Shown piece by piece: positions 391 to 62,241 of a stretch of DNA of 64,000 nt (its first letter is position 1; every line of letters begins with the position of its first letter). Source of the DNA: Squalus acanthias. Taxonomy: Eukaryota. The notes beneath the pieces were generated by a model that was not told the DNA's origin, did no database searches, and saw nothing but the letters and a program-made list of their open reading frames with translations. The stretch covers positions 127,350,001-127,414,000 of the forward strand of contig CM059431.1 of NCBI GenBank assembly GCA_030390025.1, in the 5' to 3' direction. Made by a program: the position numbers and the translations under genes.

Positions 391-1559
391 GTACTATAGG
401 TGCTACAAATGGGCATGATGTTGGCAGATTGGTCATTCTGCCCAACCATCCGTGCCAGCTTGAGGCTCGAGCCATTTTGAGGCCCAAGCCTCATTAGCAT
501 ATCACCGGTAAGCTGCCGGCACCAAGCAGTTGCCCCACTGCAGCTCAATGGTTCTGGATGGTGTCAATCATAAAATAAATTCTGGTGCTTTAAAGATATA
601 TCCTATTATTTTCCCAGACATGCCGCCTGTATTTGACAGTGTGTAGAGTATAACTCCAGCGCTGTTTCCAAACAAATTTAAAAGTTGTCGGAAGTCCAAG
701 CTCTCAGGACATATCAATACGGAAAATGTGATTTGCAGACAAGCATTATAGCAACAGTATTGCGGGTTCTGAATTGTAGTTTCCACCTACCAACAGATCT
801 CTGAATGTGCTAATACAACCTTATCATTTCTATCTGAAATTCCTAGTGTTGAGGGTCAGTCAATGAATAAAGTCAACAATGTTAAAATCTAGGACACAGC
901 CTCAAGGACAGAACATACCGCTCTTGAAGTAATGATTCTTTGTGTTGAGAATGCTGAGTCAAAAAGATAAGCAAACATGATGGAAATGTCATGTAACCAT
1001 GGAAACAAATATCTTGAAGTGTCCAAAAGGAGGAACACCTCTTCAGCAAAAAGATTAATTTTAGATGCTACAATTCAAAATGCTTTTGCATATTTTACAA
1101 ATGTGTGCTGAATAATATGAATTATTATTTTTAAATAAAACGGCTTTCTTTATAAGCTACAACATCACTGGAAATTAGTATAGCAAACAGTGTAAAGGCA
1201 CTTAGGCTCCTTTTGACATATATTTGCCGCTGCCTGTAATGAACAGTATTACTTAATCATCAAGGGAAGTTAAGACTATTCATTGGATAAGATCAGAAAT
1301 CACATGACAAATTTGTCCTTTGACAAAATTGGCTCATCACCCCTTGGTGTATCCTTCCTCATTCATAGCCTCCTTGAGTGTGTTTTTGGGGTTGAGATGG
1401 CTCCAAGGTGATATCTTTGGTGATGGAAATTTAGAACCAGGTCAGCCCGCTGTCGTAGACTTGGCAATCCAATATGTGAACCAATCAGATCCTCAGTACT
1501 TCAGAGCACTGTTGATGATTTAGCAGCCAGGTTGGCTCATTAATGGAACCTGGAAGGGT

Positions 1560-3201
1560 TGTAAGGGGTTCTGTGTCGTGCTTGTATCGCAGACGGTGCT
1601 GGTGCGAGGTTAGGCCTTCGTTGCCTAATACTATTGCTTGCTCTGGTCTCCGGCCAGCCTTGTTGCAATAAGCACCTGTGAGTGGTTCGACCCACTCGCC
1701 CTTACGGTTCTAACACTGGACTTAGGTGCGAGAGCAGCATTGCAGAGAAAAACTCAAATAGACCCGGTTGAATAGTACGAAATGGAAATCTTTATTGCAT
1801 AGCGTCTAAAATCATGAAGTACATGTCATAGGCACAAATTAACGATAGCACAAGTATACATACATTCATAAAACTTGGTCTATGGTAATGAAGAACGCAC
1901 GGCACATCGTAAAAAGGGGAACACATTATACTTTATCCTTAATAAAACCACCCTCCCCTATCAATACCTACACTACGTCTAGATTTGTAGGATCGGGAAA
2001 CATGCTCACCACTCGTGATACTTCAGAGAATTTTAAAGTAAGGCGCTCGGCTCGTTTCGCTGCAGCGCCTGACTGTCACGTGTTTGACGGGGGCTCTGTA
2101 CCCCACTTGTTTACTTTCGCTGCTGCTGCAAGCAGGCTGGGCTCCCCGTTGTCATGAAGAACTCGACAGTGCTCGGGCCCGGCTGTAGAACTCAAGGAAA
2201 AGTCTTCCTGGACCGACACCAGTTACCGGTAGAATTCAAAGAAGAGTCTTCGACCAGTTCGTGTAGTAACCTGTAAAGTTCAAGGAATGGGTCGTATATA
2301 TTCGGGCGCGGTCGGGGTTTACTGACCGTGGCGGCACGTGGCTTCTTCTTCTTCTCGTCTTGTCTCTTCGGGCCTTCGGGTCCAGACGCCGTTTACCGAC
2401 TCTCGGGATGGTGCACCCGGTCACTGGCCTTCGTCGAGGCGACTCGTTCCGTTTGAGCTCCACCCAACATAGTCAACAGAGTCCAGAGAGAAACAGAAGG
2501 CTGCTCGTCCAGCAGAGCGATCCCCGAGGATCAGAATAGGAGAATAAAAGTTCAGCAGTCATCAGCGAGATAAGAGTCATAAGAGAGCGATGGACATTTG
2601 TTGTCTATAGTTATAGTGCTGTGTTCCCTTATCTCCCGCTCAAATCTTAATGTTTGTCCTTTGTGAAATATTGGCGCTCAAAACTCCCAGCATGGGGTGA
2701 TTCTTGTCTTTAACGGGTTTCGGTAGTACCTGAAACTGGCTAACTACTCGTTAATGTTTTCCCCATTGTCGAACCGGCTAGGAGTCTCCCTGACTGGGTT
2801 TGGGGCCTCCTCGAATACTGACTTAATCACCCGTGAATGGCTCTCTCATTGTAGAGCCGTGGGGGTATATGTGTATTGATGTGTCTGGATGGGCCTTCGA
2901 TTGCCCAGTACAATGGTCCTTACTTGTGCATGGAAAACGATTCCAGCACTCATATCTTTTGCTATTGTCACAACTGCAAACAGGTTGCATCCTGTCTTTA
3001 TCAGTGCTTATCGAAAATGTTTATTCAAACGCCATCTTGTCTGCCCACTGTGCTTCTGGAAGCTTCTGTCATGATGCGTGGCGGCCATTTTACAGGCTTC
3101 TGTGTCCTTTTTAATCATGACAGCATTTCGTTTAAATAAACTGATTAAACAAATCTGTTTCTCTCTCGTTATTTTGAATCGCGATAATTGCGAAACTTTC
3201 A
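1560..3201 (-). mobile_element. Solo LTR A (1642 bp)
   Basis: TG...CA ends. 4-bp TSD GGGT at 1556-1559 and 3202-3205. AATAAA on the minus strand at 1791-1796. Both ends are homologous, in inverted orientation, to the element at 28244-30631. Confidence 0.9.
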
Positions 3202-4034
3202 GGGTAGACCTGTCATGAGGGATGGAATTTTTTCACTTGGCTCCAAATAAAACCAGTGTCCTAACTGATAAGAAACTGGACAAGTAGCAGGAAGTTTATT
3301 AGTGCATTCTGAAAGGGGGTTACAGTGCCCTCTGTATTGGACAAAAAGCAATTCTACATGTGTAGATTCTCAATAGCTTAACTTGGAGACATGATGGGTA
3401 GTTACCACTTTCAGCAGTGTCGGACAACTGGTGGTAGTGGAACGGCCGCCCATTATACACCACAGCCAATTGTATACATCCAGCATACCACACCAATGTT
3501 ATACTCATAGAACCATACAGTACAGAAGAACGCTATTCAGCCCATCATGCAAAGAATTCTCCTCATCTCCCCTTTGGTTCTTTGGCCAATTATCTTAAAT
3601 CTGTGTCCTCTGGTTACTGACCCTCCTGCCAGTGGAAACAGTTTCCTGTATTTACTCTATCAAAAACCTTCATAATTTTGAACACCTCTATTAAATCCCC
3701 CCTTAATCTTCTCTGTTCTAAGGGGAACAATCCCATCATCTCCAGAAACTGCACATAACTGAAGTAACTCCCTGGTATCATTCTAGTAAATCCCCTCTGT
3801 ACCCTCTCCAAAGCCTTGACACCCTTCCTAAAGAGTGATGCTGAGAATTGGACACAATACTTAACTGAGGCCTAAACAGTAAAGGTTTAGCATAACTTCC
3901 TTGCTTTTGTACTATATGCATCTATTTTTAAAGCCAAGCTTTTTTAACATCCTTATCAATTTGTCCTGCCACCTTCAAAGATTTGTGTGTGTGAACTCCC
4001 AGGTCTCTCTGTTCCTGCACCCCTTTTAAAATTG

Positions 4035-5308
4035 TGTAAGGGGTTTTAGTCTCGGGCTTATTTGTAGGTCAGCCAGTTATGTTTTCCTGGACTGTCCTGC
4101 CCGTTGTGCGGTTGCGAATCGCTACCCCCTTCCTAGTTCTGAGCCCAGGACTTATCGAGCGGCGATAAGGACAAATGAACAGACCCGTGGATTGGTGCGA
4201 GGAAAACCAATGTTTATTTAACAGAGATGAAACATAACATGTCAATCTTAACTTCGGTACAAACGAGGGAAATAACAGTAGAACAATACCTCACCCCTCC
4301 CAACCCCACTTTACTAGCTAAGTTAGACTCTTGAGGACCAGGGATAATGCTCACCAAACGAATCCTTTGACAGTTGAGATATGGTTTAAAGCCCTTTTAA
4401 GTAAAAGTTTCATAAGGCCCTTGTGCCTCGAGGTGTTTGATGGTCACTGGAACCGTTGCTCTGGTTTCTTGCGTGTCGGTCTGTTTCTGGAGTTGCTGGC
4501 CTTCTTTGTTGAACGGTCTTGTTTCTGTTGAACTGTGTACTGGAGAACTCCTGTGCTTCAGCTGTCCTGCTTGTGGCCTGTCCATGTGACTTAAACAGCT
4601 TGTTTTTAAACTACTAGGCTGCAAAACTGCCAGTCTCGTCTCTGCAGAACTCGTCTCTGTGGAACTCTCCTCTGTAGAACTCTCTCTCTGTAGAACTCTG
4701 GCTTGTTCCAGCACAGGTCTCAAGTTATACTGTTCGATTGTTCCTTATTTGCCCGCCAAATCTTCCCAGTGCTTTGTTTAATTCTGGTGGGCTCGTTAAG
4801 GTCGTTAACTTTAATGGCAGGAGATGGACTTTAACGATATTAAATATTTGTTAAGTGGAGGATGATTGCTGGTTGATGGTTGTTCATTTGTGTTGCCTTT
4901 ACTTCTTTGTATAAATGCTAAACAGTTTGATGGGGCTGGAGACAGGCCGATCACCTGTAATATACAACATTGTCTCTGTAGAGGCCAGCCCCGCCTCCTT
5001 TGGCAGCCTGTACTGAGATCTGCCCGGGCATGTTTTAAAATGTCCCTGGTCCAATACACTCAATTGGTTTTAAAATGTCCAAAGCCCCTTTTTCTTAGGG
5101 TCTCTCTCTTTTCCTCTGAGTCTTTTGGGGGTCTGGGAATTTTGAAACTCTCTTACAGACCCAGGCATGTCACCTGGCCTGCTGTTTTTGCAGGGCCCTG
5201 GTTTCTGTTCAATGTCGCAGGCTTCTGCCATGAGGTCTAGAAGCCACTTTGTCTAGGGTACCACTTATTAATGACTCTGGGGAATGTGGGAATTTTGAGA
5301 ACCCTACA
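4035..5308 (-). mobile_element. Solo LTR C (1274 bp) inserted in CR1
   Basis: TGTAAGGGG...CCCTACA ends. Near-TSD ATTG/CTTG. Minus-strand AATAAA at 4213-4218. The terminal region resembles LTR A and B and matches 16260-16583 in inverted orientation. Confidence 0.85.
4640..4700. repeat. About 15-bp tandem repeat (CTCTGTAGAACTC) x4 inside LTR C
   Basis: ctctgcagaactcg tctctgtggaactc tcctctgtagaactc tctctctgtagaactc. Confidence 0.8.
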
Positions 5309-5641: not shown

Positions 5642-8011
5642 TTTTTTTCCATTCACAGGATGTGGGCGTCGCTGGCAAGGCCAGCATTTATTGCCCATCC
5701 CTAATTGCCCCTGAGAAGGTGGTGGTGAGCCGCCTTCTTGAACCGCTGCAGTCCGTGTGGTGAAGGTACTCCCACAGTGTTATTACGGAGGGAGTTCCAG
5801 GATTTTGACCCAGCGACGATGAAGGAACGGCGATATATTTCCAAGTCAGGATGCTGTGTTACTTGGAGGGGAACTCAGAGGTGATGGTGTTCCCATGCGC
5901 CTGCTGCCCTTATCCTTCGAGGTGGTAGAGGTCGTGGGTATGGGAGGTGCTGCTGAAGAAGCCTTGGCGAGTTGCTGCAATGCATCTTGTGATCGGTGGT
6001 GGAGGGAGTGAATGTTTAAGGTGGTGGATGGGGTGCCAATCAAGCGGGCTGCTTTGTCCTGGATGGTGTCGAGCTTCTTGAGTGTTGTTGGAACTGCACT
6101 CATCCAGGCAAGTGGGGAGAATTCCATCACACTTCTGCTTCATTATCTGAGGAGTTGTGAATGGAACTGAACACTGTGCAATCATTAGTGAACATCCCCA
6201 CTTCTGACCCTATGATGGAGGGAAGGTCATTGATGAAGCACAGTGGACAGGGCATACCTGGTCAATTTTATATATTGCTAGTGTTGTAGCAGTACGGGAA
6301 CAGCTTGGCTAGTGGCATGGCTAGTTCTGGAGCACAAGTCTTCAGCATGACAGCCAGGATGTTGTCGTGCCCTATAGCCTTTGCTCTATCCAATGCGTTC
6401 AGCCATTCCTTGATATCACATGGAGTGAATCGAATTGGCTGAAGACTGGCTTTTGTGATAGTGGGGACCTCAGGAGGAGGCCGAGATCATCCACTTGGCA
6501 CTTCTGGCTTTTGCACTCATGTCCTGGGCTCCGCCATCATTGAGGATGGGAATATTCATGGAGCCTCCTCCTCCTGTTAGTTGTTTAATGGTCCACCACC
6601 ATTCACGACTGGATGTGGTAGGACTGCAGAGCTTTGATCTGATCAATTGATTGTGTGATCGCTTAGCTCTGTCTATAGCATGCTGCTTTTGCTGTTTAGC
6701 ATGCATGTAGTGCTGTGTTATAGCTTCACCAGGTTGGCACTTCATTTTTGTGTATGTCTGGTGCTACTCCTGGTCATGCTCTTCTGCACACCTCATTGAA
6801 CCAGGGTTGGTCCCCTGCATTGGTGGTAATGGTAGAGTGAGGGATATGCCGGGCCATGAGGTTACAGATTGTGGTGGAATACAATTCTGCTGCTGCTGAT
6901 GGACCACAGCACCTCATGGATGCCCAGTTTTGTGCTGCTAGATCTGTTCTGAATCTATCCCATTTAATACGATGAAGATGGGACTTTGTCTCCACAATGA
7001 CTGTATGGTGGTCACTCCTACCAATGCTGTCATGGACAGATGCATCTGCAACACGTAGATTGGTGAGAACGCGGTCAAGTAAGTTATTCCCTTGTGTTGG
7101 TTCTCTCACCACCTGCCGCAGGCCCAGTCTGGCAGATATATCCTTCAGGATTCGGCCAGCTCGGTCATTAGTGATGCTATCGAGTCACCCTTAGTGATGG
7201 ACTTTGAAGGCCCCCAGCCAGAGTACGTTTTGTGCCCTTGCTACCCTCATTGCTTCTTTCAGGTGGTGTTCAAAATGGAGAAGTACTGATTCAACAGCTG
7301 AGGGAGGGCGGTAGGTGGTAATCAGCAGGAGGTTTCATTCTTCATGTTTGACCTGATGCCATGAGACTTCATGGGGTCCAGCGTCAATGTTAAGGACTCC
7401 CAGGGCCACCCCCTCTCAACTGTATACCACCTCTGTGGGACAGGACATACCCAGGGATGGTGATGAAGGAGTCTGAAACGTATGAATCTGTAAGTTGGTC
7501 TATGTCAGGCTGTTGCTTGATTAGTCTGTGGACAGCTCTCCCAATTTTGGCACAAGTCTTGATGTTAGTGAGGAGGACTTTGCAAGGTCGACCGGGCTGG
7601 GTGTGCCTTTGTCGTGTCAGGTGCCTAGGTCGATGCCGGGTGGTCCGTCTGGTTTTTCTTCTTAGTATACTTCTTTGTAGCAGTTTGGTACAACTGAATA
7701 GCTCGCTAGGCCATTTCAGAGGGCAGTTAAAAGTCAACCTCATTGCTGTGGGTCTGGAGTCACATTTCGGCCAGCCAGATAAGGACGGCAGATTTCCTTC
7801 CCTAAAGGACATTAGTGAACCAGATGGGTTTTTATGACAATCCGGTAATTTCATGGTCACCATTACTGATAGTAGCTTTTTATTCCAGATTTATTTAATT
7901 AACTGAATTTAAATTCACCAGCTGAACTGGTTTGAACTCACGCCTCTGGATTATTAGTCCAGGCCGCTGGATTACTAGACCAGTAACATAACCACAATGC
8001 TACCGTACCCC
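5642..8011 (-). mobile_element. CR1-group LINE (family T), 5'-complete and internally deleted, with tRNA-like head
   Basis: A-box at 7992-8002 and B-box at 7929-7937. APE motifs (KVLLTNI, HRLIKQQPDI, GNNLLDRVLTN, IGRSDH). Most of the RT is deleted near 6240. The 3' tail GGGCAATAAATGCTGGCCTTGCCAGCGACGCCCACATCC plus an A-rich end is shared with five other copies. Confidence 0.9.
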
Positions 8012-15264: not shown

Positions 15265-15447
15265 AATAGATCGGTAGGAATTAATGGCTTTTGCAACCCA
15301 TTAAATACCTAACACAAGTTACAATTGAGTTCCAGAATCCATATATACAAATATGCTCTGTGGTGCTGGAATGGGTTTCCAGGCTTCCCTTACTAGAGTT
15401 TGAGAAAAGATGGATATGCCAGATTGGGCACTGCTACAAAGCAAGTT

Positions 15448-16171
15448 TTATTTTATTCATTCACTGGATGTGGGCACCGCTGGCAAGGCCAGCATTTATT
15501 GCCCATCCCTAATTGTCCTTGAGAAGGTGGTGGTGAGCTGCCTTCTTTATCTGCTGCAGTTCATGTGGTGAAGGTACTCTCACAGTGCTGTTAGGGAGGG
15601 ATTCCAGGATTTTGACCCAGTAACGATGAATGAACAGCGATATATTTCCAAGGCAGGATGGTGTGTGACTTGGAGGGGAACTTGGAGGTGGTGTTGTTCC
15701 CATGAGTCTGCTGCCCTTGTCCTTCTAGATGGTAGAGATCGTGGGTTTGGGAGATGCTGTCGAAGAAGCCTTGGCAAGTTGCTGCAAGTGCATCTTGTAG
15801 ATGGTACACATGATGGAGGGAGTGAATGTCTAAGTGGTGGATGGGCTGCCAATCAAGTGGGCTGCTTTGTCCTGGATGGTGTTGAGCTTCTTGATTGTTG
15901 TTGGAGCTGCACTCATCCAGGCAAGTGGAGAGTATTCCATCAAACTCCTGTCTTGTGCCTTGTAGGTGGCGGAAAGGCTTTAGGGAGTCAGGAGATGAGA
16001 CACTCGCTGCAGAATACCCAGCCTCTGACCTGCTCTTGTAGCCACAGTATTTATATGACTGGTCCAGTTAAGTTTCTGGCCAATGGTGACCCCAAGGATA
16101 ATGATGGTGGGGGATTTGATGATGGTAATGCCTTTGAATGTCAATGGGAGGTGATTAGACTCTCTCTTGTT
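15448..16171 (-). mobile_element. LINE family T, 3' fragment
   Basis: Same 3' tail and C-terminal coding region (HCSN.PRLLRQHLPNP) as the other copies. Confidence 0.9.
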
Positions 16172-16950: not shown

Positions 16951-18371
16951 CCACCCCAAGGACGCCTGAGAAACATCCAATCAGAAATGATGTCGGGCCA
17001 TTTTTCAAGTGTCCCTGGTGGCCGCATAAAACAAGTGTTAGGTTCCATGAATGTGTATATGAGGGGCCTAATGCCAGTTTTAACTCCCTTCACAGAAATT
17101 GGACAGCGATGAGTGAGTCAGGCGTTGGGTCTGCCCGCTCAGGATTCTTTATATGACGCGGCGTAGGTCGCAACCAACAAAAGGCAAGTTTTGAAATAAA
17201 AATTTGAAAGGAAAACCTTGCTGTGTACCCAGGAGGTGCAGGAGTGCTCCCTTGATCTACAGTTGTTGTGATAACCATCCTCCATCTCCCTCTGTTACCT
17301 GCTTCAAACCCCCTTCCAGAACGGGCCCAGGTGGATTTTTACCCCAAAATACTTTTAGAAGCTGGATTTTAGCAACTTATTTGGTATTTGTAACTTCTTT
17401 GGAACAAACTGTTAACACATTTGGGACAACCATCAGAGTTTCAGAAACCTGACAAGTGTAGTGGTCTCTGTTCATGGAGATCAATGACCAACATAAAATC
17501 TTGGACATGGAGGCAGAAGTATGGGAATAGACCGTTGGCTCTCAAGTAGCCCTCTGTCCTTTGCCCGCATTTGCATCTGAAAATGACAGGAGAAGCCTAA
17601 AAAGTAAACCAGCCCCTACCGCCAGAATAAGTTGTGCTATTTCTGGCATCCAGCAGGACCATCAGGGTCTTCTGTGTGTCAAAGAAGATGACCTAGACTT
17701 GTTAGGATGTCTTCACACTTGCTCCTTCCAGTAATAAAACACATAGAAGTAGTATAACAGAAAGATCATAGATCACCAAGTAGGAATCACAGTGACACAT
17801 CACACACTGCACCTTAGCACATATCAATACAGATTGCTTCCTGGAAGAATTTTAGAAGCATAGGCAAAAATTAGCAACGGCTTCTTTAATGGTCATATGC
17901 CAAATTGCTACAAATTAACACACACTTAACTCTTGCATAGGCTCGAATATACAGAGGAAATTTTGTATCCATTCCTATGAACCACACGTATCTGGTTTTT
18001 GAATCAACACTTCAGATCTTTAAGTTAAATGTATGACAAAGCTCATTCTGATTCCCAGAATTGGCCCTCTCTTTTTACTAATGTGCAGTGTAGAAATGGA
18101 GACAGCTATGCTCTGTCTTACACAGAAGCAGATGTGACAGGAATCCCTGAGCAAATCATTGAGTTTTACATTGAGCACTACTCAATGCTGATTCTGATAG
18201 TAGCATTCTAAGCACTTCAGATGGTAGGTGATGTGTGTATGTGGGCTCTTGTAGAATCACTTTTAACTGGTACCAAATGTTCCATTCAGCTAGGATGCAC
18301 TCACCAAATCGTTGTCCAGCAACTCCTGTTGGCAGTGCATAGGTGTGATGTCAGGTGAGGACAGTATTTTA

Positions 18372-20046
18372 TTTTAATTCGTTTTTATGGGATCTGGGCG
18401 TTGCTGACAAGGCCAGCATTTATTGTCCATCCCTAGCTGCCCTTGAGAAGGTGGTGGTGAGCCACCTTCTTGAGCCGCTGCAGTCCATGTGGTGATGGTA
18501 CTACCACAGTGCTGTTAAGTAGGGAGTTCCAGGATTTTGACCCAGCGATGATGAAGGATCGGCGATATACTTCTGAGTCAGGATGATGTGTGACTTGGAG
18601 GGGAACTTGGAGGTGGTGATGTTCCTATGCGTCTGCTGCCCTTGTCCTTCTAGGTGGAAGAGGTCACGGGTTTGGGAGGTGCTGCCGAAGAAGCCTTGGC
18701 GAGTTGCTGCAGTGCATCTTTGTAGATGGTACACACTGCAACCATGGTACGCCGGTGGCGGAGGGAGTGGATGTTTAAGGTGGTAGAGGGGGTGCCAATC
18801 AAGCGGACTGCTTTGTCCTGGATGGTGTCGAGCTTCTTGATTGTTGTTGGAGCTGCACTCATCCAGGCAAGTGGAGAGTCTTCCATCACACTCCTGACTT
18901 GTGTCTGGTAGATGGTAGAAAGTCTTTGGGGAGTCAGGAGCTGAGACACTTGCCGCAGAATACCTAGACTCTGACCTGCTCTTGTTGCCACAGTACATAT
19001 GTGGCTGGTCCAGTTAAGTTTCTGGTCAATGGTCACCCCCAGCATGTTGATGGTGGGGGATTTGGCGATGGTAATGCCATTGAATGTCAAGGGGCGGTGT
19101 TTAGACTCTCGCTTGTTGGAGATAGTCATTGCCTGGCACTTCTGTGTCGCGAATATTACCTGCCACTTATCAGCCCAAGCCCGAACGTCGTCCAGGTTTT
19201 GTTGCATGCAGGCATGGACTGCTTCATTATCTGAGGAGTTGTGAATGGCACTGAACACTGTGCAGTCTTCAGCGAACATCCCCATTTTTGACCTTATGTT
19301 GGAGGGAAGGTTACTGATGAAGCAGCTGAAGATGGTTGGGCCTAGGACACTGCCCTGAGGAACTCCTGCAGCGATGTCTTCAATCATCACAACTATCTTC
19401 CTTTGTGCTAGGTATGACTCCAGCCAGTGGAGAGTTTTCCACCCGATTCCCATTGACTTCAGTTTTACTAGGGCTCCTTGATGCCACATTTGGTCAAGTG
19501 CTGCCTTGATGTCAAGGGCAGTCATTCTCACCTCACCTCTGGAATTCAGCTCCTTTGTCCATGTTTGGACCAAGGCTGTAATGAGGTCGGCAGCCGAGTG
19601 GTCTTGGCGGAACCCAAACTGAGTATCAGTGAGCAGGTTATTGATGAGTAAGTGCCGCTTGATAGCACTGTTGATGACACCTTCCATCACTTTGCTGATG
19701 ATTGAGAGCAGACTGATAGGGCAGTAATTGGCCAGATTGGATTTGTCCTGCTTTTTGTGGACAGGACACACCTGGGCAGTTTTCCGCATTGTCGGATAGA
19801 TGCCAGTGTTGTAGCTATACTGGAACAGCCTGGCTAGAGGCACAGCTAGTTCTGGAGCACAAGTCTTCAGCACGATAGCCGGGATGTTGTCGTGGCCCAT
19901 AGCCTTTGCTGTATCCAGTACGCTCAGCCGTTTCTTGATATCACGTGGAGTGAATCGAATTGGCTGAAGACTGGCTTCTGTGATAGTGGGGACCTCGGGA
20001 GTAGGCCGATATGGATCATCCACTCGGCACTTCTGGCTGAAGATGA
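18372..20046 (-). mobile_element. LINE family T, 5'-truncated, long RT ORF
   Basis: ORF 18650-20023 (457 aa) has [31 protein letters not shown] and MFAEDC. Possible TATTTTA duplication at 18365 and 20047 (weak, AT-rich). Confidence 0.95.
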
Positions 20047-25800: not shown

Positions 25801-28243
25801 TCAGTGGTCATTTTTATTGTGATCTTCATGAGGAAGGGGTTGAAAGGATTTAGTGCAGATGATGGACTGCCTGATGAATCCTAAATCATAGAAGGTACAG
25901 CATGTGGCAACAGTGCACCAGGGTCTGATGGTGGAGCTCGTGTCTCAAAAGTGCTATTCAATTAGATGGCAGCGAGCATCCCTCCCAGGTGCGGCCCACC
26001 TACTTGGAAGCCTCTAGTGCTCCCCCTGGTCCCCCTCCTCTTCCTCCTCCTCCTCTTTTTTTTATTCATTCACAGGATGTGAGTGTCACTGGCAAGGCCA
26101 GCCTTTATTGCCTATCCCTAATTGCCCTTAAGAAGGTGGTGGTGTGTCGCCTTCTTGAACCGCTGCGGAACATGTGGTGAAGGTACTCCCACAGTGCTGT
26201 TAGATAGGGAGTTCCAAGATTTTGACCCAGCAATGATGAAGGAATGGTGATATATTTCCAAGTCAGGATGGTGTGTGACTTGGAGGGGAACTTGGAGGTG
26301 ATGGTGTTCCCATGTGCCTGCTGCCCTTGTCCTTCTAGGTGGTAGAGGGTGCGGGTTTGGGAGGTGCTGCTGAAGAAGCCTTGGCGAGTTGCTGCAATGC
26401 ATCTTGTAGATGGTACACACTGCAGACATGGTACGCTGGTGGTGGAGGGAGTGAATGTTTAAGGTGGTGGATGGGGTGCCAATCAAGCGGGCTGCTTTGT
26501 TCTGGATGGTGTCTAGCTTCTTGAGTGTTGTTGGAGCTGCACTGATCCAGGCAAATGGAGAGTATTCCATCACACTCCTATGCTTGTTCCTTGTATATGT
26601 TGGAAAGGCTTTGGGGTGTTAGGAGGTGAGTCACTTGCTGCAAAATACCCAGCCTCTGACCTGCTCTTGTAGCCACAGTATTTATGTGGCTGGTCCAGTA
26701 AAGTTTCTGGTCAATGGTGACCCCCAGGATATTGATGGTGGGGAAATATCATGATGGCAACGCCATTGAATGCCAAGGAGAGGTGGTTAGACTTTCTCTT
26801 GTTGGAGATGGTCATTGCCTCGCACTTGTGTGGTGTGAATGTTGCTTGTCACTTAGCAGCCCAAGCTTGAATGTTGACAAGGTCTTGCTGCATGCGGGCA
26901 TGGACAGCTTCATTATCTGAGGCGTTGCAAATGGAACTGAACCCTGTGCAATCATCAGTGAACATCTCCACTTCTGACCTTATGATGGAGGGAAGGATGA
27001 AGCAGCTGAAGATGGTTGGGCCTAGGACACTGCCCTGAGGAACCCCTGCAGCGATGTTCTAGGGCTGAGATGATTGGCTTCCAACAATGACAACCATCTT
27101 CCTTTGTGCTAGGTGTGACTCTAAGCCAGTGAAGAGTTTTCCTCCTTATTCCCATTGACTTCAATTTTACTAGGGCTCCTTGATGCCACACTCACTCAAA
27201 TGCTGCCTTGATGTCGAGAGCAGTCACTTTCACCTCACCTCTGGAATTAAGCTCTTTTGTCCATGATTGGACCGAGGTTGTGATGAGGTCTGGAGCCGAG
27301 CGGTCCTGGCGGAACCCAAACTGAGCATTGGTGAGCATGCTATTGGTGAGTAAGTGCCACTTGATAGCACTGTTGACGACACCTTTCATCACTTTGCTGA
27401 TGATTGAGAGTAGACTGACGGGGTGGTAATTGGCTAGATTGGAATTGTTCTGCTTTTTGTAATTTTTAACTTTGTCGGGTAGATGCCAGTGTTGTAGCTG
27501 TACTGGAACAGCTTGGCTAGAGCTGCGGCTAGTTCTGCAACACAAGTCTTTATCACGACAGCCGGGATGTTGTCGGGGCCCATAGCCTTTGCTGTATCCA
27601 GTGCACTCAGACATTTCCTGATATCATGTGGAGTGAATCGAATTGGCTGAAGACTGGCTTCTGGGATGGTGGGGACGTCAGGAGGAGGCCGAGATGGATC
27701 ATCCACTGGGCACTTCTGGCTGAAGATGGTTGTAAACATTTCAGCTTTGTCTTTTGCACTCATGTGCTGGGCTCCACCATCATTGAGGATGTGGATGTTC
27801 ATGGAGCCTCCTACTAACGTTAGTTGTTTAATGGTCCACCACCATTCATGATTGGATTTGACAGGACTGCAGAGCTTTGATCTGATCCATTGCCTGTGGG
27901 ATTGCTTAGCTTTGTCTATAGCATGCTGCTTCTGCAGTTAACAATGCATGTAGTCCTGTGTTGTAGTTTCACCAGGTTGGCACCTCATTTTTAGGTACGC
28001 CTGGTGCTGCTCCTGACATTCTCTTTTCCACTCCTCATTGAACCATAGTTGGTCCCCTGGCTTGATGGTAATGGTTGAGTGAGGATGCCGGGCCATGAGG
28101 TTACAGTTTGTGGTGGAATACAATTCTGCTGCTGCTGATGGCCCACAGCGCCTCATGGATGCCCAGTTTTCAGCTGCTAGATCTGTTCTGAATCTATCCC
28201 ATTTAGCACGATGGTAGTGCCACACAACACGATGGAGGGTATC

Positions 28244-51889: not shown

Positions 51890-53036
51890 TATTTTTATAT
51901 TTTTCCTGGGGATGTGGGTGACACTGCCAAAGCCATATTTATTGCCCATCCTTAGTTACACTGATAGGTGGTGTTGGGCCTAGTCTTTGAACTGCTGCAG
52001 TCCCAGTGGTGATGGTACTCTCACAATGTTGTTAGGTAGGAAATTCCAGGATTTTGACATGAGATGAAAGAACAGCAATATATGTTCAAGTCAGAATAGT
52101 GTGTGACTTGGAAGGGAGCCTGCGGGTGATGGTGTTCCCATATTGAGAAGCATCCGGCAAGGCGCCGAACACCTCGAGTCTCTTCGCTGGGAGCAAGCGG
52201 AAGCCAAGCGCAAACAGTGGAAGGAGCACACGTCAACCCAAGCACCCCACCCACCCGCCCCTTCAACCACCATCTGCCCCACCTGTGACAGAGACTGTAG
52301 GTCCCGCATTGGACTCATCAATCACTTGAGAACTCATTTTTAATGTGGAAGCAAGTCATCCTCGGTTCCGAGGGACTGCCTAAGAAGAAGAAGAAGATAT
52401 TACTGCTGTTCTTCTTCTCGGCGGTAGAGGTTGTGGAGCTGGGAGGTGATGTTGAAGTAAGCTTTGTTTCTGCAGTACATCCTGTTCATACTGCAGCTGT
52501 GTGCCGTTGCTGGAAGGGGATGGATATTTGATTCAATGGCAGAAGTGCCAATCAAGTAGACTGCTTTATCTTTAATGATGTCAAGCTTCTTGACAGTAGT
52601 TGGGTCTTCACCTATCCAGGCAAATATGATTATCCCATCACACTCTGATGTGGGCCTATTATATGGTGGAGAGGTATTGAGCACTCAAGAGGTGAGCCAA
52701 GTTGCAGAGTACCCAGCCTATACCCTGCTCTTGTAGTGATAGTTTGGATATGAGGTCTCAGTAATGGTCGTGCCATTGGAGGCCGGGGGAGTTGGTTGGG
52801 CCTCTTCTTGGAAATGCTCATTACCTCACAATTGTGTTATATGAATATTACCTGCCACTTATCAGCCCAAGCCTCAGTGTTGTCCAGATCCTGCTGTAGG
52901 CTGGTATTAGTGCTTAATTATTGGAGGAATTGTGAATGGAACTGGACACTGTATAATCATCAATGAACAGTCCCACTCCTGACCTTATGACAAAAGGAAG
53001 TTCATTGATGAATCAGCTGAAGATGTTTGGGACAAG
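51890..53036 (-). mobile_element. Older diverged LINE family T copy, split by an RTE fragment
   Basis: Tail GGATGTGGGTGACACTGCCAAAGCCATATTTATTGCCCATCC on +. KKLDIIKDKAVYLIG motif. Confidence 0.8.
52145..52396 (+). mobile_element. RTE-clade LINE 3' end
   Basis: C-terminal zinc finger CPTCDRDCRSRIGLINHLRTH, short UTR and (AAG)n tail. ATATT duplicated at 52140 and 52397. Confidence 0.8.
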
Positions 53037-53293
53037 GAAAGTGGCCGGGGCTATGATGATTGGCTACTGACAAACCTGCCCACACATCCTTGGCAGCAAC
53101 AGTTGGGAAAGAAGCTGCATCAGCTGGATTACGTAAGTATCCTGTTGTCATGTTACACTGCTCATGGGCTTTTATGCCTATTTTGAGCTGTGTCGGCTGC
53201 TGTACCTGACTAGAAAAATTGTGGAAAGTTATTTTTTTGCAGTTGCAAGATAATCTCTGCCCAGCAGCTTGTGCACAGATATTCTCTGGGAAC

Positions 53294-55115: not shown

Positions 55116-56794
55116 TAGCCTAGCTAGCTGTCTGGTACAAACACTGGTAGAGGCACTGGTTGAGGGGCTGACGGGGGAGTAGTGTGCTGTCATCCTGAGA
55201 GAGGACAGTATGTGTCTCTTCCATGGGGCCATTGCCACCCCCCTGTAGCTGCAGCTCCGCACTCCCACTGCTGTGTGTGAGAACAGACAGCTGGAGTGAT
55301 GTGACAGTTTGAAAGACCCTATCCATGCTCTCCTTCATGCTTAGCCAGCTGGAGGAGACGTCAGCGCTGACATCAAGGGCTCCATAACTGAGTGATGCTA
55401 CAGCAGTGTGCATAGAGGTAACCACATGCTCCATGGTTTGGTTGCCAAGCATGATGACCCCACACAAGTTGGAGCTGAACTCTTCCATGCCGTACAACAT
55501 TGTGCGCATCTCGCTGGCAGGCAGTCCAATGCATCGAGCAATTGTTGGTCCACAAGCATCAACCTTCTTCTATAGACTGGGCCCTAAAAATCAATATCTG
55601 TGCTTTCTGTGGAAGGATGCATGCTTGCTATTCTGGCTAGCTCGTTCCTGTGTGATCCTATGTCTCTGCCCTTGCTCTTGCACACTTGCGCTCAGGTGAA
55701 TCTCCTTGTGCAGACCACTATAACTGACCTTCTAAGCTATGCAGCTTGCCAATTTCTGAGCTGGTGCCTGCAAGGGTAAGGTCAAGTGACAATGTATCTT
55801 CAGGAGGACTGTCCTTCTCTTCAACTATTGCAGTTGGACTTGTTACTTGTAATAGACCTGGAAAGAGAGACAAATGACAATGGTTAGCAGTTAGCGGTAA
55901 GGGGTAGCAGATGAGTAGCAGCTCAAAGCTGCACCACTTTGTCAAACAGAGTGTGAGAGAGACAGAATTCAGTGAGAATAGAAAAGGAGGGTAAGATGGC
56001 CACACAGTCTGCAGAGCATATCCTCCGATCTCACCAGTTGCGATGTTTCGGACTTTCTCTCTGCTTACTTCTTCAATTGCGGCCTCTTCCTTTGGGGACA
56101 ACACTTGTAGGGTTGGTGGCCTCCCTCCTGTCTGATCCTCTTATTGTGTGCCAGTTTGTCCTGCAAAAAGAAGGGGAGCGAGATAGCATGTGGCCTGCTG
56201 AAGAGCTGTGAAGATGTGCATGTCAGGGTAGAAAAGTGTGGATGTGTGTGAAAGATGTCAGGTGTGAGGAGGTGAGGGGAGTAATTGTGAGGACGGGAGG
56301 AGATGCAGAGTGTGCAAGTCGCAGCAGAACGTGGTACAGTGAAATGTGCTGCTGTGATTGGAGGAGAGTGATGAGAAGCGGGGGAGGGATGTACTGTCTA
56401 GATAACATCTTATAGTTCTGAAGTCATCTCACACTCCTTAGGCTAAAAATTCATTATAGACAAGAAATGGGCAGTGTTTAGACTAAAAAAGGTTAAGCTG
56501 TGCCAGCTGAAAATCGTCTAGGATGCACGCAAAATACGTGCTCACTCCTCATTAAAATGATTGCAGTCATGCTTCTAGTCTAAAAACTCAAGCTCATTGG
56601 TGTTACACTGAAAAGCTGGACCAATATCGAGGGCAGACTAATTGCAAGTAATGATTGCCACGGGTTCTTTTCACTAATTAAAGTGGAGGTTAATTGATGC
56701 TGCAGCACCTCATTGTCAGGATTGTTGGGTGTGCAGCTGCCCCAACAACCATAAGAAGAAGGTCGAGGAGAAGGAAGAGTTCTTTACAAATCTG

Positions 56795-59700
56795 ATGGCA
56801 GATCATTGCTCCAGGGAGAGAGCCCGAAGGTTTTCCGATGAAGCTTTGGAGGTATTGGTTTTCGCACTGGAGAGAAGGCGGGCTGTCGTGTACCCACCAA
56901 CTGGCAGGAGGCCCTCGTCACAAGTGTGCCACACTATGTGGAGGGAGGTAGCACACCATGTCACGGGCAGCACTGTGGTCCCCAGGACCCACACCCAGTG
57001 CAGGAAGAGGTTTAACGACCTCACACGGGTGGTCAAGGTGAGTGAAAGCTTCAACAAATGCTACATACCACCATCTCAACCACAGCGGAATGGTAGCATA
57101 GTGGTTATGTTACTGGACTAGTAATCCAGAGGCCCCGTGGAGACGAAGATCCGTCTTCACACTGAGGACACCCTCCATCATGTTATGTGGCACTACCACC
57201 ATGCTAAATGGGATAGATTCAGAACAGATCTAGCAGCTCAAAACTGGGCATCCATGAGTCGCTGTGGGCCATCAGCAGCAGCAGAATTGTATTCCACCAC
57301 AATCTGTAACCTCATGGCCCGGCATATCCCTCACTCTACCATTAACATCAAGCCAGGGGACCAACCCTGGTTCAATAAGGAGTATGGAAGAACATGCCAG
57401 GAGCAACACCAGGCGTACCTAAAAATGCATTTCCAACCTTTGGAGGCTGCAACACAGGACTACATGCAAGCTAAAAAATGGAAGCAGCATGTTCTAGACA
57501 GAGCTAAGCGATCCCACAATCAACAGATCAGATCAAAGCTCTGCCGTCATGCCACATCCAGTCGTGAATGATGGTGGACCATTAAACAACTAACTGGAGC
57601 AGAGGCTCCATGAATATCCCCATCTTCAATGATGGTGGAGCCCAGCACATGAGTGCAAAAGACAAAGCTGAAGTATTTGCAACCATCTTCAGCAGAAGTG
57701 CTGAGCGATGATCCATATTGGCCTCCTCCTGAGGTCCCCACCACCACAGAAGCCAGTCTTCAGCCAATTTGATTCACTCCACGTGATATCAAGAAATGGC
57801 TGAGCGCACTGGATACAGCCCTGACAACCTCCCCGCTGTTCTGCTGAAGACTTGTGCTCCAGAACTAGCCGCACCTCTAGCCAAGCTGTTCCAGTACAGC
57901 TACAATACTGGTATCTATCCGACAATGTGGAAAACTGCCCAGGTATGTCTGTCCACAGAAAGCAAGACAAATCCAATCCGGTGAATTACCGCCCCATCAG
58001 TCTACTGTCAATCATCAGCAAAGTGATGGAAGGTGTCGTCGACAGTGCTATCAAGCGGCACTTACTCACCAATAACCTGCTCACTGATGCCCAGTTTGGA
58101 TTCTGCCAGGACCACTCAGCTCCAGACCTCATTACAGCCTTGGTCCGAACATGGACAAAAGAGCTGAATTCCAGAGGTGAGGTGAGAGTGACTGCCTTTG
58201 ACATCAAGGCAGCATTTGACTGAGTGTGGCATCAAGGAGCCCCAGTAAAACTGAAGTCAATGGGAATCGGGGGAAAACTCTCCACTGGCTGGAGTCATAC
58301 CTAACACAAAGGCAGATGGTTGTGGTGGTTGGTGGACAATCATCACAGCTCCAGGACATCACTGCAGGAGTTCCTCAGGGCAGTGTCCTAGGCCCAACCA
58401 TCTTCAGCTGCTTTATCAATGACCTTCCATCCATCATAAGGTCAGAAGTGGGGATGTTCGCTGATGATTGCATAGTGTTCAGTGCCATTCGCAACTCCTC
58501 AGATAATTAAGCAATCCATGCCCGCATGCAGCAAGACCTGGATGACATTCAGGCTTGGGCTGATAAGTGGCAGGTAACATTCGCGACACACAAGTGCCAG
58601 GCAATGACTATCTCCAACAAGCGAGTATCTAACCACTGCCCCTTGACATTCAATGGCATTACCATCGCCGAATACCCCACCATCAATATCCTGGGGGTCA
58701 CCATTGACCAGAAACTTAACTGGACCAGCCACATAAATACTGTGGCAACAAGAGCACGTCACAGGGTGGATATTCTGCGGCTAGTGTCTCACCTCCTGAC
58801 TCCCCAAAGCCTTTCCACCATCTACAAGGCACAAGTCAGGAGTGCGATGAAATACTCTCCACTTGCCTGGATGAGTGCAGCTCCAACAACACTCAAGAAG
58901 CTCAACACCATCGAAGACAAAGCAGCCCGCTTGATTGGCAACCAACCACCAGCTTAAGCATTCACTCTCTCCATCACCAGCGTACCGTGGCTGCAGTGTG
59001 TACCATCTACAAGATGCACTGCAGCAACTCGCCAAGGCTTCTTCGGCAGCACCTCCCAAACCCGCGACCTCTACCACCTAGAAGGACAACGGCAGCAGGC
59101 ACATGGGAACACCATCACCTCCAAGTTTCCCTCCAAGTCACACACCATCCTGACTTTAAAGTGTATCACCATTCCTTCATCATCGCTGGGTTAAAATCCT
59201 GGAAGTCCCTCCCTAACAGCACTGTGGGAGTACCTTCACCACACGGACTGCAGTAGTTCAAGAAGGCGGCTCACCACTACCTTCTCGAGGGCAACTAGGG
59301 ATGGGCAATAAATGCTGGCCTTGCCAGTGACGCTCACATCCCATGAACAAACAGAAAAAAGTCTTCACACACTGCTTAATGCATCACACCCTCAGCACTC
59401 ACCCACCAACAATCTCTACCTATCAACACTCACACCCACATCTCACACCTTGCACACAATGACAGCTATTCAACTTTGGAAGGCACATCACCCAAACAGA
59501 TTGCACCACACTCACACACACACTTTCCTTTTTCTTGCAGGCCAAGGTGGCGCATAATCACCAGGAGCAGGAGCAGACAGGCGATTATGGGGGTGAAGCC
59601 CAGATTGAAGAGCTGTGCCAGCTGGAGACGAGCGTGCTGGAGATCATTGATCGCCAGGTCGACAGTACTGTTACCACCGGCGACATTGACCCCATTGGGG

Positions 59701-61077: not shown

Positions 61078-62241
61078 TCATTCATGTGATCGGAGTCTGA
61101 TGAGCCGGTCACGGACAGCTCGTCCGGAAAGCCAATTGTCTCGCTGCTTCCGCCCTCCTGTTCCTCGTCCTCCTCCTCCTCATCCTCCTCTCCCTCTTTC
61201 TCCTCCGGAGGTGGACCTGCAATCCCTGCTGGCAAGGGCTGCGCCCTCATGATGGCCAAGTTGTGGAGCATGCTGTAGACCACCATGAAATGGGACACCC
61301 GCTCAGCCGATTACTGGAGGGCTCCTCCCGAGAGGTCAAGGCAGCAGAACCGTTGCCTCAGTAGGCCAATGGTCTGTTCGATGATGTTCCTGGTGGCAGC
61401 ATGGCTCTCATTATATGAGTGCTGGGCAGGAGTGTTGGGGTTGTGGAGGGGACTCAGGAGCCAAGTGGAGAGCGGAAAGCCCTTGTCTTGAGCAGCCACC
61501 CTCAAGCTTGACATGGTGGCTGGGAGAGTGCTAGCACACCAGTTTGGCACAGGATGAAGGCATCGTGGCTGCTGCCAGGATAGCGGGCATTGACAATGAG
61601 GATTCGCTATGTGTGGTCGCACAGCAACCGCACATTAGGTGAGTGGTAGCGTTTGTGGTTGTGGAAGATCTCAGGATTGTTATGCGGTGCCTGCAAATCC
61701 ACCTGGCTGCAGTCGATGGTGCCCTGCACCAAATGAAAGCCCGCTATCCTGGCAAAGCCACATGCACGCTCATCCTGCTTCTCTCTGGTGATCGGGAAGC
61801 CAATGTAATCCCTTCTCCTGGTGTAGAGAGCCTCCGGGACCTCCCGGATGCAGTGATGGATGGCGAACTGCGAGATGATACCTATGTCTCCTGTTGCAGA
61901 CTGGAAGGATCCGCTGGTGAAGAAATTGAGGGCGACAGTTACCTTGATTGCCACTGAGAGAGCCGTGGTCGCCCTGATCTGAGGCTTGAGCACTAGGTGT
62001 AGGAGTTGGCAGAGTTCTGTAACCACCTCCTTGGTGAAGCAAAGCCTCTTAATCCACTGCTCATCGCTTAATTGAAGGTAGGAGAACTGATGTTGGAAGA
62101 ACCTAGGAGGTTAAGGTCTCCTGTTGAGAGCCCTGATGGCTCTCCTCCTCCCTCTGCGCATATGTTCCTTTCTTTCTCGCTGCCTCCGCTCCCTCCACCG
62201 TTGATGCTGGAGGCGAGTTCAACTGCCAGTACAGCCCCCAT
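61078..62241 (-). pseudogene. Harbinger transposase, frameshifted
   Basis: ALSVAIKVTVALNFFTSGSFQ, VQGTIDCSQV, QDKGFPL, TRNIIEQTIGLLRQRF, MLHNLAI and an acidic C-terminus. Confidence 0.9.

Follow-up and report, generated by a model that had tools for sequence, protein, structure and literature searches.

The window analysed here is a stretch of 64,000 nucleotides of the genome of Squalus acanthias (contig CM059431.1 of assembly GCA_030390025.1, positions 127,350,001 to 127,414,000), and the element under study lies on its minus strand at 8011-5642. This element is a decayed copy of a long interspersed element (LINE) of ~3.3 kb, which carries a single open reading frame (ORF) for an endonuclease of the apurinic/apyrimidinic (APE) type and a reverse transcriptase, and which begins with a head of the kind found in short interspersed elements (SINEs). 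It is clear that this structure is real, abundant and unusual. The canonical element consists of a tRNA-derived head of ~95 nt (A box, duplicated anticodon arm and B box), a leader of ~350 nt and the single ORF, and it is well supported that this head forms the true 5' terminus of the family and is present in thousands of copies. The best explanation for this arrangement, which is put forward tentatively from the sequences, is that the head would be the internal RNA polymerase III (Pol III) promoter of a coding LINE, and that it would yield the template RNA of the element.

The original prediction, made from the letters of the window, held that the head belongs to the element and is not a chance neighbour, and the searches of the host genome (3.7 Gb in 3,882 contigs) bear this out. 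A search with the head, the leader and the endonuclease gave 13,648 candidates, of which 40 were scored, and all 40 begin within the head. A query extended by 389 nt of the flank that precedes the element in the window was aligned to the fetched loci, and upstream of the head it matches none of the 29 other loci, so that the extension of full-length copies past the head, which would speak against the prediction, was not observed. About 15 of these loci, mostly on one contig (C9) and some on small contigs, represent one duplicated segment and were counted as one event. These copies have identical match limits, starting at position 30 of the query, and are 86-87% identical to the window copy, and they look like one LINE copy inside a segmentally or tandemly duplicated block. 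When loci were extended to 7 kb, eight of the 12 were found to span the element from head to tail in 3.05-3.4 kb.

Copies were also sampled irrespective of the head, by a search with the endonuclease frame that gave 126,300 candidates, 106 of which were scored. From these, 23 near-full-length copies were taken, corresponding to 21 of the 22 stop-free matches and to two matches with long frames. Eight of the 23 reach the head, five of them its first ~15 nt, and 14 are truncated at scattered points from nt ~105 to ~348; the remaining one could not be placed. An alternative upstream sequence in register was found in none of the 23, in agreement with the original claim that the element has no ORF1, given that no other upstream module of any kind precedes the endonuclease in these copies.

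The linkage of the head to the coding body was counted over the whole genome with exact motifs (12-mers for the A and B boxes), for which all the reversed-pattern controls gave zero. The B box is linked to a LINE-type leader at 4,644 places and to the start of the endonuclease at 2,301, the A box is linked to the start of the endonuclease at 1,240 places, and a motif at nt ~258 is linked to it at 3,622. Of the copies extending to nt 258, about two thirds thus retain an intact B box, which fits ordinary 5' truncation up to a single terminus.

Some truncation points are shared. Two pairs of unrelated loci have the same one (L046 and L054 at nt ~259, L056 and L059 at nt ~233), and these positions could be hot spots or minor alternative starts. 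Some of the upstream flanks hold other abundant repeats, at varying distances and orientations. In the upstream flanks of L056 (nt ~290-358) and L062 (nt ~240-313), one repeat ends in ATTCTATG-type repeats and another ends in ...GGCGCTATATAAATACAA. The former resembles the tail of the CR1-like HE1/HER1, a different family (V-domain, ATTCTATG-type tail), which was met here in flanks only.

The head, the coding lineage and the derived SINE

The head of the window copy is laid out as GGGG, an acceptor-like ACGG, the A box, two tandem anticodon-arm-like hairpins and the B box. Most copies carry the A box TAGCATAGTGG and the B box GAGTTCAAATCC, and SINE and LINE copies alike begin with GGG(A/T)ACGG, which places the start of the element 8-9 nt before the A box. 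The prediction of a 5' end with A and B boxes at tRNA-like spacing agrees with the results of ARAGORN, which recognises a tRNA in 12 of the 17 distinct heads when its threshold is relaxed, versus 6 of 510 dinucleotide shuffles. At the default threshold a tRNA is called in three of the 17. The calls correspond to a Thr-AGT with a long extra arm, or to an Ile-AAT that uses the second arm, and in the drawings the acceptor stem shows poor pairing. ARAGORN finds no tRNA in the window itself, and the Rfam tRNA model gives no match at E<=1 on the seven loci to which it was applied. Given the ARAGORN calls together with the failure of the Rfam model, the head is derived from a tRNA but has degenerated, and its anticodon arm is duplicated. 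In L065 and in several other loci linked to the A box, one of the tandem anticodon-arm repeats is absent (GGTAATG joined to GACTAATGATCC), which suggests recurrent deletion between the duplicated arms.

The protein encoded downstream of the head is that of an APE-type LINE. The frames of L042 and L036 contain the Pfam domains Exo_endo_phos (PF03372) and Exo_endo_phos_2 (PF14529), with E values of 1e-9 to 7e-7 that pass the cut-off, and RVT_1 (PF00078) was recognised on the frame of L033 (E 5e-34), with the reverse transcriptase downstream in the same frame. The longest open frame, of 844 aa, is that of L043 and covers both the endonuclease and the reverse transcriptase. The nearest named proteins come from sharks (a Heptranchias perlo model with 86% over 25% of the query and a Pristiophorus japonicus model with 78% over 9%) and are gene models with embedded fragments. 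The nearest full-length relatives in the homologous-protein search are at most 36% identical, and a search of a protein atlas gave generic RVT_1 clusters only. The tail motif CAATAAATG...GAATGAAT resembles the tails of L2/MIR elements.

In a tree of the LINE body, a young clade with terminal branches of 0.024-0.036 stands apart from older copies with branches of 0.06-0.08, and the variants of the head follow this division. The variant GGTAATGTCACTGGGC is carried by all three head-bearing copies of the young clade and the variant GGTTATGTTACTGGAC by all seven copies outside it, in a tally that leaves out L040/L037, one duplicated copy that is intermediate. The ORF evolved under purifying selection (among 41 subfamily-fixed differences within it, 19 are synonymous versus about 24-29% expected, P 0.002-0.016), and over at least two successive subfamilies the head was passed on together with the coding body. 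Given that the head variants track the subfamilies of the body and that the ORF was under purifying selection, the head has travelled with a translated LINE lineage. In five of six copies of the young subfamily (loci L034, L039 and L042-L045, all but L034), a short upstream ORF that overlaps the start of the endonuclease begins at an ATG in the +1 frame.

The same head is found on a shorter unit, first met as a sequence of ~400 bp in the flank of one LINE copy. This unit is a SINE of ~415 bp that consists of the first ~303 nt and the last ~110-118 nt of the LINE. Its search in the genome gave 7,409 candidates, and all 38 independent matches that were scored cross the junction between the two parts. 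The prediction that internal deletion products of the LINE would look like SINEs with a LINE tail thus corresponds to a real family with a single shared junction. In the 12 copies that were fetched, the common joint runs from ...GCCCTCTG to (CAG)CGGTTCAAG..., with CTG microhomology; the tail and an A run come after it. One deletion in the LINE explains the SINE, because both of its halves are contiguous in the LINE when these 12 copies are aligned. No diagnostic majority difference between SINE and LINE was found in the shared 303 nt (12 SINE and 13 LINE copies). The simplest reading is that the SINE would have been born from the head-bearing LINE by one internal deletion, taking its head from the LINE. 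The description of the element as a SINE-LINE fusion in the original prediction may be wrong in the order of events that it implies.

The exact junction of the SINE is linked to the B box at 117 places in the genome (control zero), a number that is under-counted given that the motif contains a CpG. Compared on this under-counted motif, LINE-type leaders carry the head ~40 times more often than the SINE junction does (4,644 versus 117). The family is also present in contigs of four organisms, and contigs of X1, X9 and X11, three organisms other than the present one, bridge SINE-type joints, from about nt 595-623 to nt 3280-3328 of L042.

Transcription of the element and rival explanations

The proposal for the role of the head is that it would act as an internal promoter and would fix the 5' end of the element. 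TFIIIC would bind the A and B boxes and Pol III would initiate 8-9 nt upstream of the A box, at a site that is the first nucleotide of SINE and LINE copies alike. In the absence of a terminator of four T (T4) from the ancestral sense strand, Pol III could traverse the whole element and produce the template RNA. The reverse transcriptase of the LINE would recognise this RNA at its 3' hairpin and A-rich end, leading to target-primed reverse transcription that would often be incomplete and leave 5'-truncated copies. The protein might be translated from this RNA, with initiation that is inefficient, cap-independent or non-AUG, or else from rarer transcripts of RNA polymerase II (Pol II) or from read-through transcripts. 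The sequences are consistent with this proposal in that both boxes are kept in both subfamilies, and in that the common start of SINE and LINE lies at the distance from the A box that is typical of type-2 promoters. Over the 3.3 kb, no T4 run is common to more than two of 16 copies, and nine of the 16 have none. Judged from such features, transcription of the full element by Pol III is possible but doubtful, and the complete picture, of an autonomous retrotransposon with a genomic RNA made by Pol III that is the parent of its SINE by internal deletion, has to be considered unlikely as it stands.

Several observations weigh against a Pol III origin of the template RNA. In the ancestral 3.3 kb, ~2 T4 runs would be expected from a first-order Markov model and from synonymous-codon shuffles, and their absence, which is not significant (P about 0.1), is weak evidence for Pol III. 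The sequence AATAAA is found ~40 nt before the A-rich 3' end, is perfectly kept in all aligned tails, and looks like a Pol II polyadenylation signal. In an uncapped Pol III RNA, a frame of ~930 codons that lies ~430 nt from the 5' end would be hard to translate. An uninterrupted frame was present in none of the 15 full or near-full copies, and an in-frame ATG between the last in-frame stop and the endonuclease was present in none of 12 aligned copies, these being what is left of 14 after L035 and L036, in which the anchor of the frame was not found. To these points must be added the failure of the Rfam model on the head and, from the literature, the view that non-LTR (long terminal repeat) retrotransposons use Pol II and that the weak processivity of Pol III limits the length of an element, as expressed in the available text of PMC10886601.

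These observations lead to the alternative that Pol II transcribes the LINE and that the capped mRNA is polyadenylated after the AATAAA, which is a serious possibility although not a probable one. The head would then have been kept for another reason, such as TFIIIC keeping the locus open or insulated, a part in a Pol II promoter together with the CpG-rich leader, or the stability of the RNA, and Pol III would be used by the short SINE derivative only. Such an origin would account for the AATAAA in every aligned tail, for the leader being CpG-rich at nt ~340-440 in the ancestor, and for the purifying selection on the ORF, which implies that it must be translated efficiently enough; it is also compatible with a T4 depletion that is not significant. 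All LINEs studied are said to use Pol II in what is available of PMC10886601 and PMC5786205. What transcription by Pol II leaves unexplained is that the LINE starts exactly at the +1 position of the SINE and of a tRNA, and that both boxes stayed canonical through the turnover of subfamilies. Furthermore, the head is ~40 times commoner on LINE-type leaders, and its evolutionary success is therefore tied to the LINE. The position of the 5' end might also be set after transcription, if the head were a processing signal and an RNase P-type cleavage of read-through transcripts occurred at the 5' side of the tRNA-like fold, in analogy with the 5' ribozymes of R2 and of some RTE/L1Tc elements. The 5' ends of the copies, which lie at the equivalent of the tRNA +1 or 1-2 nt before it, would agree with such a cleavage, as would the tRNA-like fold that ARAGORN finds in 12 of the 17 heads. 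Nonetheless, the acceptor stem is poorly paired, the Rfam tRNA model fails, and an RNase Z-type cleavage at the 3' side would part the head from the body, which makes processing a very improbable origin of the 5' end.

Other explanations concern the LINE itself and not its promoter. The long copies that bear the head could be long SINEs, that is, SINE/LINE chimeras made by template switching and mobilised in trans by an autonomous LINE that lacks the head and has a promoter of its own, possibly along with an ORF1. Template switching is known to join small RNAs or SINEs to LINE-1, according to the available text of bioRxiv 10.1101/2025.02.02.635956, and the second copy in the window has a private head-to-LINE junction of this kind. 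The junction of the family is, by contrast, constant in thousands of copies, none of the 23 near-full-length copies has an alternative 5' module, and the ORF of the head-bearing lineage was under purifying selection. Moreover, to obtain the LINE from the SINE a switch exactly at the border between body and tail of the SINE would be needed, while the reverse takes one deletion. Mobilisation of such chimeras in trans is thus improbable. Chance neighbourhood, nested insertion of the LINE into SINE copies that served as its target site, and an assembly artefact were considered as well. Truncated copies retain the tail next to upstream flanks that are unrelated, from which it follows that the tail is part of the LINE and that the 5' half of the SINE is not a target site; nested insertion was rejected on this ground. 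Thousands of copies on all large contigs, in the same register and with reversed-pattern controls of zero, also speak against these trivial origins, which can be regarded as practically negligible. The head as Pol III promoter of the coding LINE is, with the points listed against it, retained as the preferred reading.

Copies in the window

The copies in the window were mapped by blastn with the natural copy L034, and reference positions are nucleotides of this copy. In the copy at 8011-5642, the endonuclease frame (KVLLTN...) starts near 7581, which is ~430 nt from the start of the element and ~340 nt past the head. This copy misses nt ~1762-2223 and ~2330-2637 of the reference, with joints near 6243/6240 and 6136 in the blastn alignment of L034, and its terminal A run consists of seven A (5642-5648). 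The expected hairpins are present in the fold of the 3' tail, the stability of which is not significant on its own (z -1.57). In L036, L039, L042 and L043 the 3' end contains 4-9 consecutive T, placed either between GAAT and the terminal A run or directly behind the latter; in the remaining copies GAAT is immediately followed by the A run. The features of all copies are collected in Table 1.

Table 1. Positions of the LINE copies and of their parts within the 64,000-nt window.
Feature	Position	Strand	Remarks
tRNA-derived head, 5' terminus of the window copy	7918..8011	-	Start at 8011 reads GGGGTACGG
A box TAGCATTGTGG	7992..8002	-	One mismatch to the A-box consensus TRGCNNAGTGG; TAGCATAGTGG in most copies
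B box GAGTTCAAACC	7929..7939	-	Family form GAGTTCAAATCC; short deletion directly after it, relative to other copies
5' leader (element nt ~95-303), which also forms the body of the derived SINE	7717..7917	-	Ends ...GCCCTCTG; from alignment of 12 SINE copies with a LINE copy
LINE-only leader	7582..7716	-	CpG-rich in the ancestor; open in the endonuclease frame, without in-frame ATG
Remains of the APE-type endonuclease coding region (approximate limits)	7015..7581	-	Frame broken in the window copy; from blastn mapping and Pfam on homologous frames
Remaining ORF	5749..7014	-	Two internal deletions took most of the reverse transcriptase
3' tail common to the SINE	5642..5748	-	Nested hairpin GGGATGGGC...GCTGGCCTTGCCAGC...GCCCACATCC, AATAAA at 5687-5692, GAATGG, A run
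Second copy, head fragment with perfect A box TAGCATAGTGG	57086..57134	+	Element nt ~1-45; nt ~3-45 at 57092-57134
Second copy, LINE part	57137..59362	+	Reference nt ~1008-3163; blastn
5'-truncated copy of the same family	15447..16171	-	Reference nt 2415-3161
5'-truncated copy of the same family	18369..20045	-	Reference nt 1516-3161
5'-truncated copy of the same family	26055..28243	-	Reference nt 1038-3162
Older relative, 68-77% similar to the LINE, 5'-truncated	51909-53038	-	Relative of the same LINE

The copies of the family in the window begin at nt 1, 1038, 1516 and 2415 of the reference and have a common end at ~3161. The second copy at 57086, to which the original prediction had pointed as an independent case of the same head, does show head and LINE together again. 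Its head fragment directly abuts LINE position ~1008-1059, which corresponds to a deletion of ~960-1000 nt, and the junction was bridged by none of 39 other scored matches in the genome. It is private to this copy and was not propagated, so that a deletion family of this type was ruled out. The 18-mer GGTAGCATWGTGGTTATG occurs twice in the window versus 0.09 times expected, and two occurrences were reached in none of 100 shuffles. The second copy is flanked by a frame with Myb_DNA-bind_5 (56678-57121, plus strand, E 6e-7) and by one with DDE_Tnp_4 (61311-61634, minus strand, E 4e-10), whose domains suggest a transposon of the PIF/Harbinger type or a pair of genes that descends from such an element. 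It sits just past the Myb-like exon, the GT end of which is at ~57038, and an AG-bounded exon resumes near 59540.

Relation to known elements and significance

With the tRNA-derived class of SINEs, the element has in common a head with A and B boxes and a 3' tail that is shared with a LINE. The size of a SINE (~100-700 bp) and its non-coding nature are found only in the derivative of ~415 bp, and not in the unit of ~3.3 kb that codes for endonuclease and reverse transcriptase. The features of APE-type LINEs are present in the APE endonuclease, in the reverse transcriptase downstream in the same frame, and in the scattered 5' truncation with a common 3' end. In template-switch chimeras the junction varies with each insertion and is single-copy; this does not apply to the family, and only the second window copy is private. 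No published LINE with a tRNA-derived head was found in the literature that was searched, which did not extend to Repbase, Dfam or subscription papers (e.g., Ogiwara et al. 1999).

The closest parallel is given by the SINEs of Kojima 2018 (PMC5786205), which consist of a tRNA or 5S head followed by the 5'-UTR (untranslated region) and the 3'-UTR of an RTE or Vingi LINE. The SINE of ~415 bp resembles them in that it joins a head to the 5' leader and the 3' tail of a LINE, its partner being a LINE of ~3.3 kb with a single ORF. In the text available of that work, the small-RNA head is proposed to have been added onto an internally deleted LINE and is not described on an autonomous element, whereas here it is the coding LINE that bears the head, in no fewer than 2,301 copies, and the SINE is less common. 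An internal deletion of a LINE that keeps both ends, including the 5' promoter region, is likewise known from RIME/Ingi, NARTc/L1Tc and the Vingi derivatives (PMC5786205), the 5' ends of which are, as far as they are described there, neither tRNA-derived nor type-2 Pol III promoters. The pairs formed by CmiSINE/SacSINE1 and L2-2_CM (PMC5499810), by UnaSINE1 and UnaL2, and by HE1 and HER1 (PMC3747384) are similar in having 5' A and B boxes and a hairpin tail that is common to SINE and LINE. In such pairs of a tRNA-headed SINE with a stringent LINE, as presented in these sources, only the 3' tail is shared, while here the first ~303 nt are shared too.

A promoter derived from a small RNA and built into a retroelement that is not a SINE is found in the TRIMp3 elements (Cassandra, Helenus and Ajax), which differ from the present family in that they are short (under ~1.3 kb), non-coding LTR elements, and for which it is argued, in the part of the paper available, that the autonomous partners must use Pol II (PMC10886601). 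The U6/L1, tRNA/L1 and Alu/L1 chimeras (bioRxiv 10.1101/2025.02.02.635956) are alike in that a small RNA or a SINE is joined 5' of a LINE in the same orientation. These are described in the available text as dead on arrival, with variable junctions and from few to tens of loci, whereas in the present family one junction was propagated through subfamilies. The family probably gained its head in the first place through the formation of such a chimera, which is perhaps also the origin of the second window copy.

The division by which LINEs are transcribed by Pol II and SINEs by Pol III underlies models of the origin of SINEs and of the silencing of each class by the host. A successful coding LINE with a head of the SINE type makes it possible to test, on a natural case, if an autonomous element can be driven by Pol III. 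The family also shows how a single deletion in a LINE can give rise to a SINE that has head, body and tail from the outset; if this is true, the order of events is reversed with respect to the textbook case of a tRNA pseudogene that gains a LINE tail. Repeat annotation that splits such copies into a SINE and a LINE misjudges both families in shark-like genomes. If the proposed use of the head is true, this would be the first protein-coding mobile element that replicates via a Pol III transcript of more than 3 kb.

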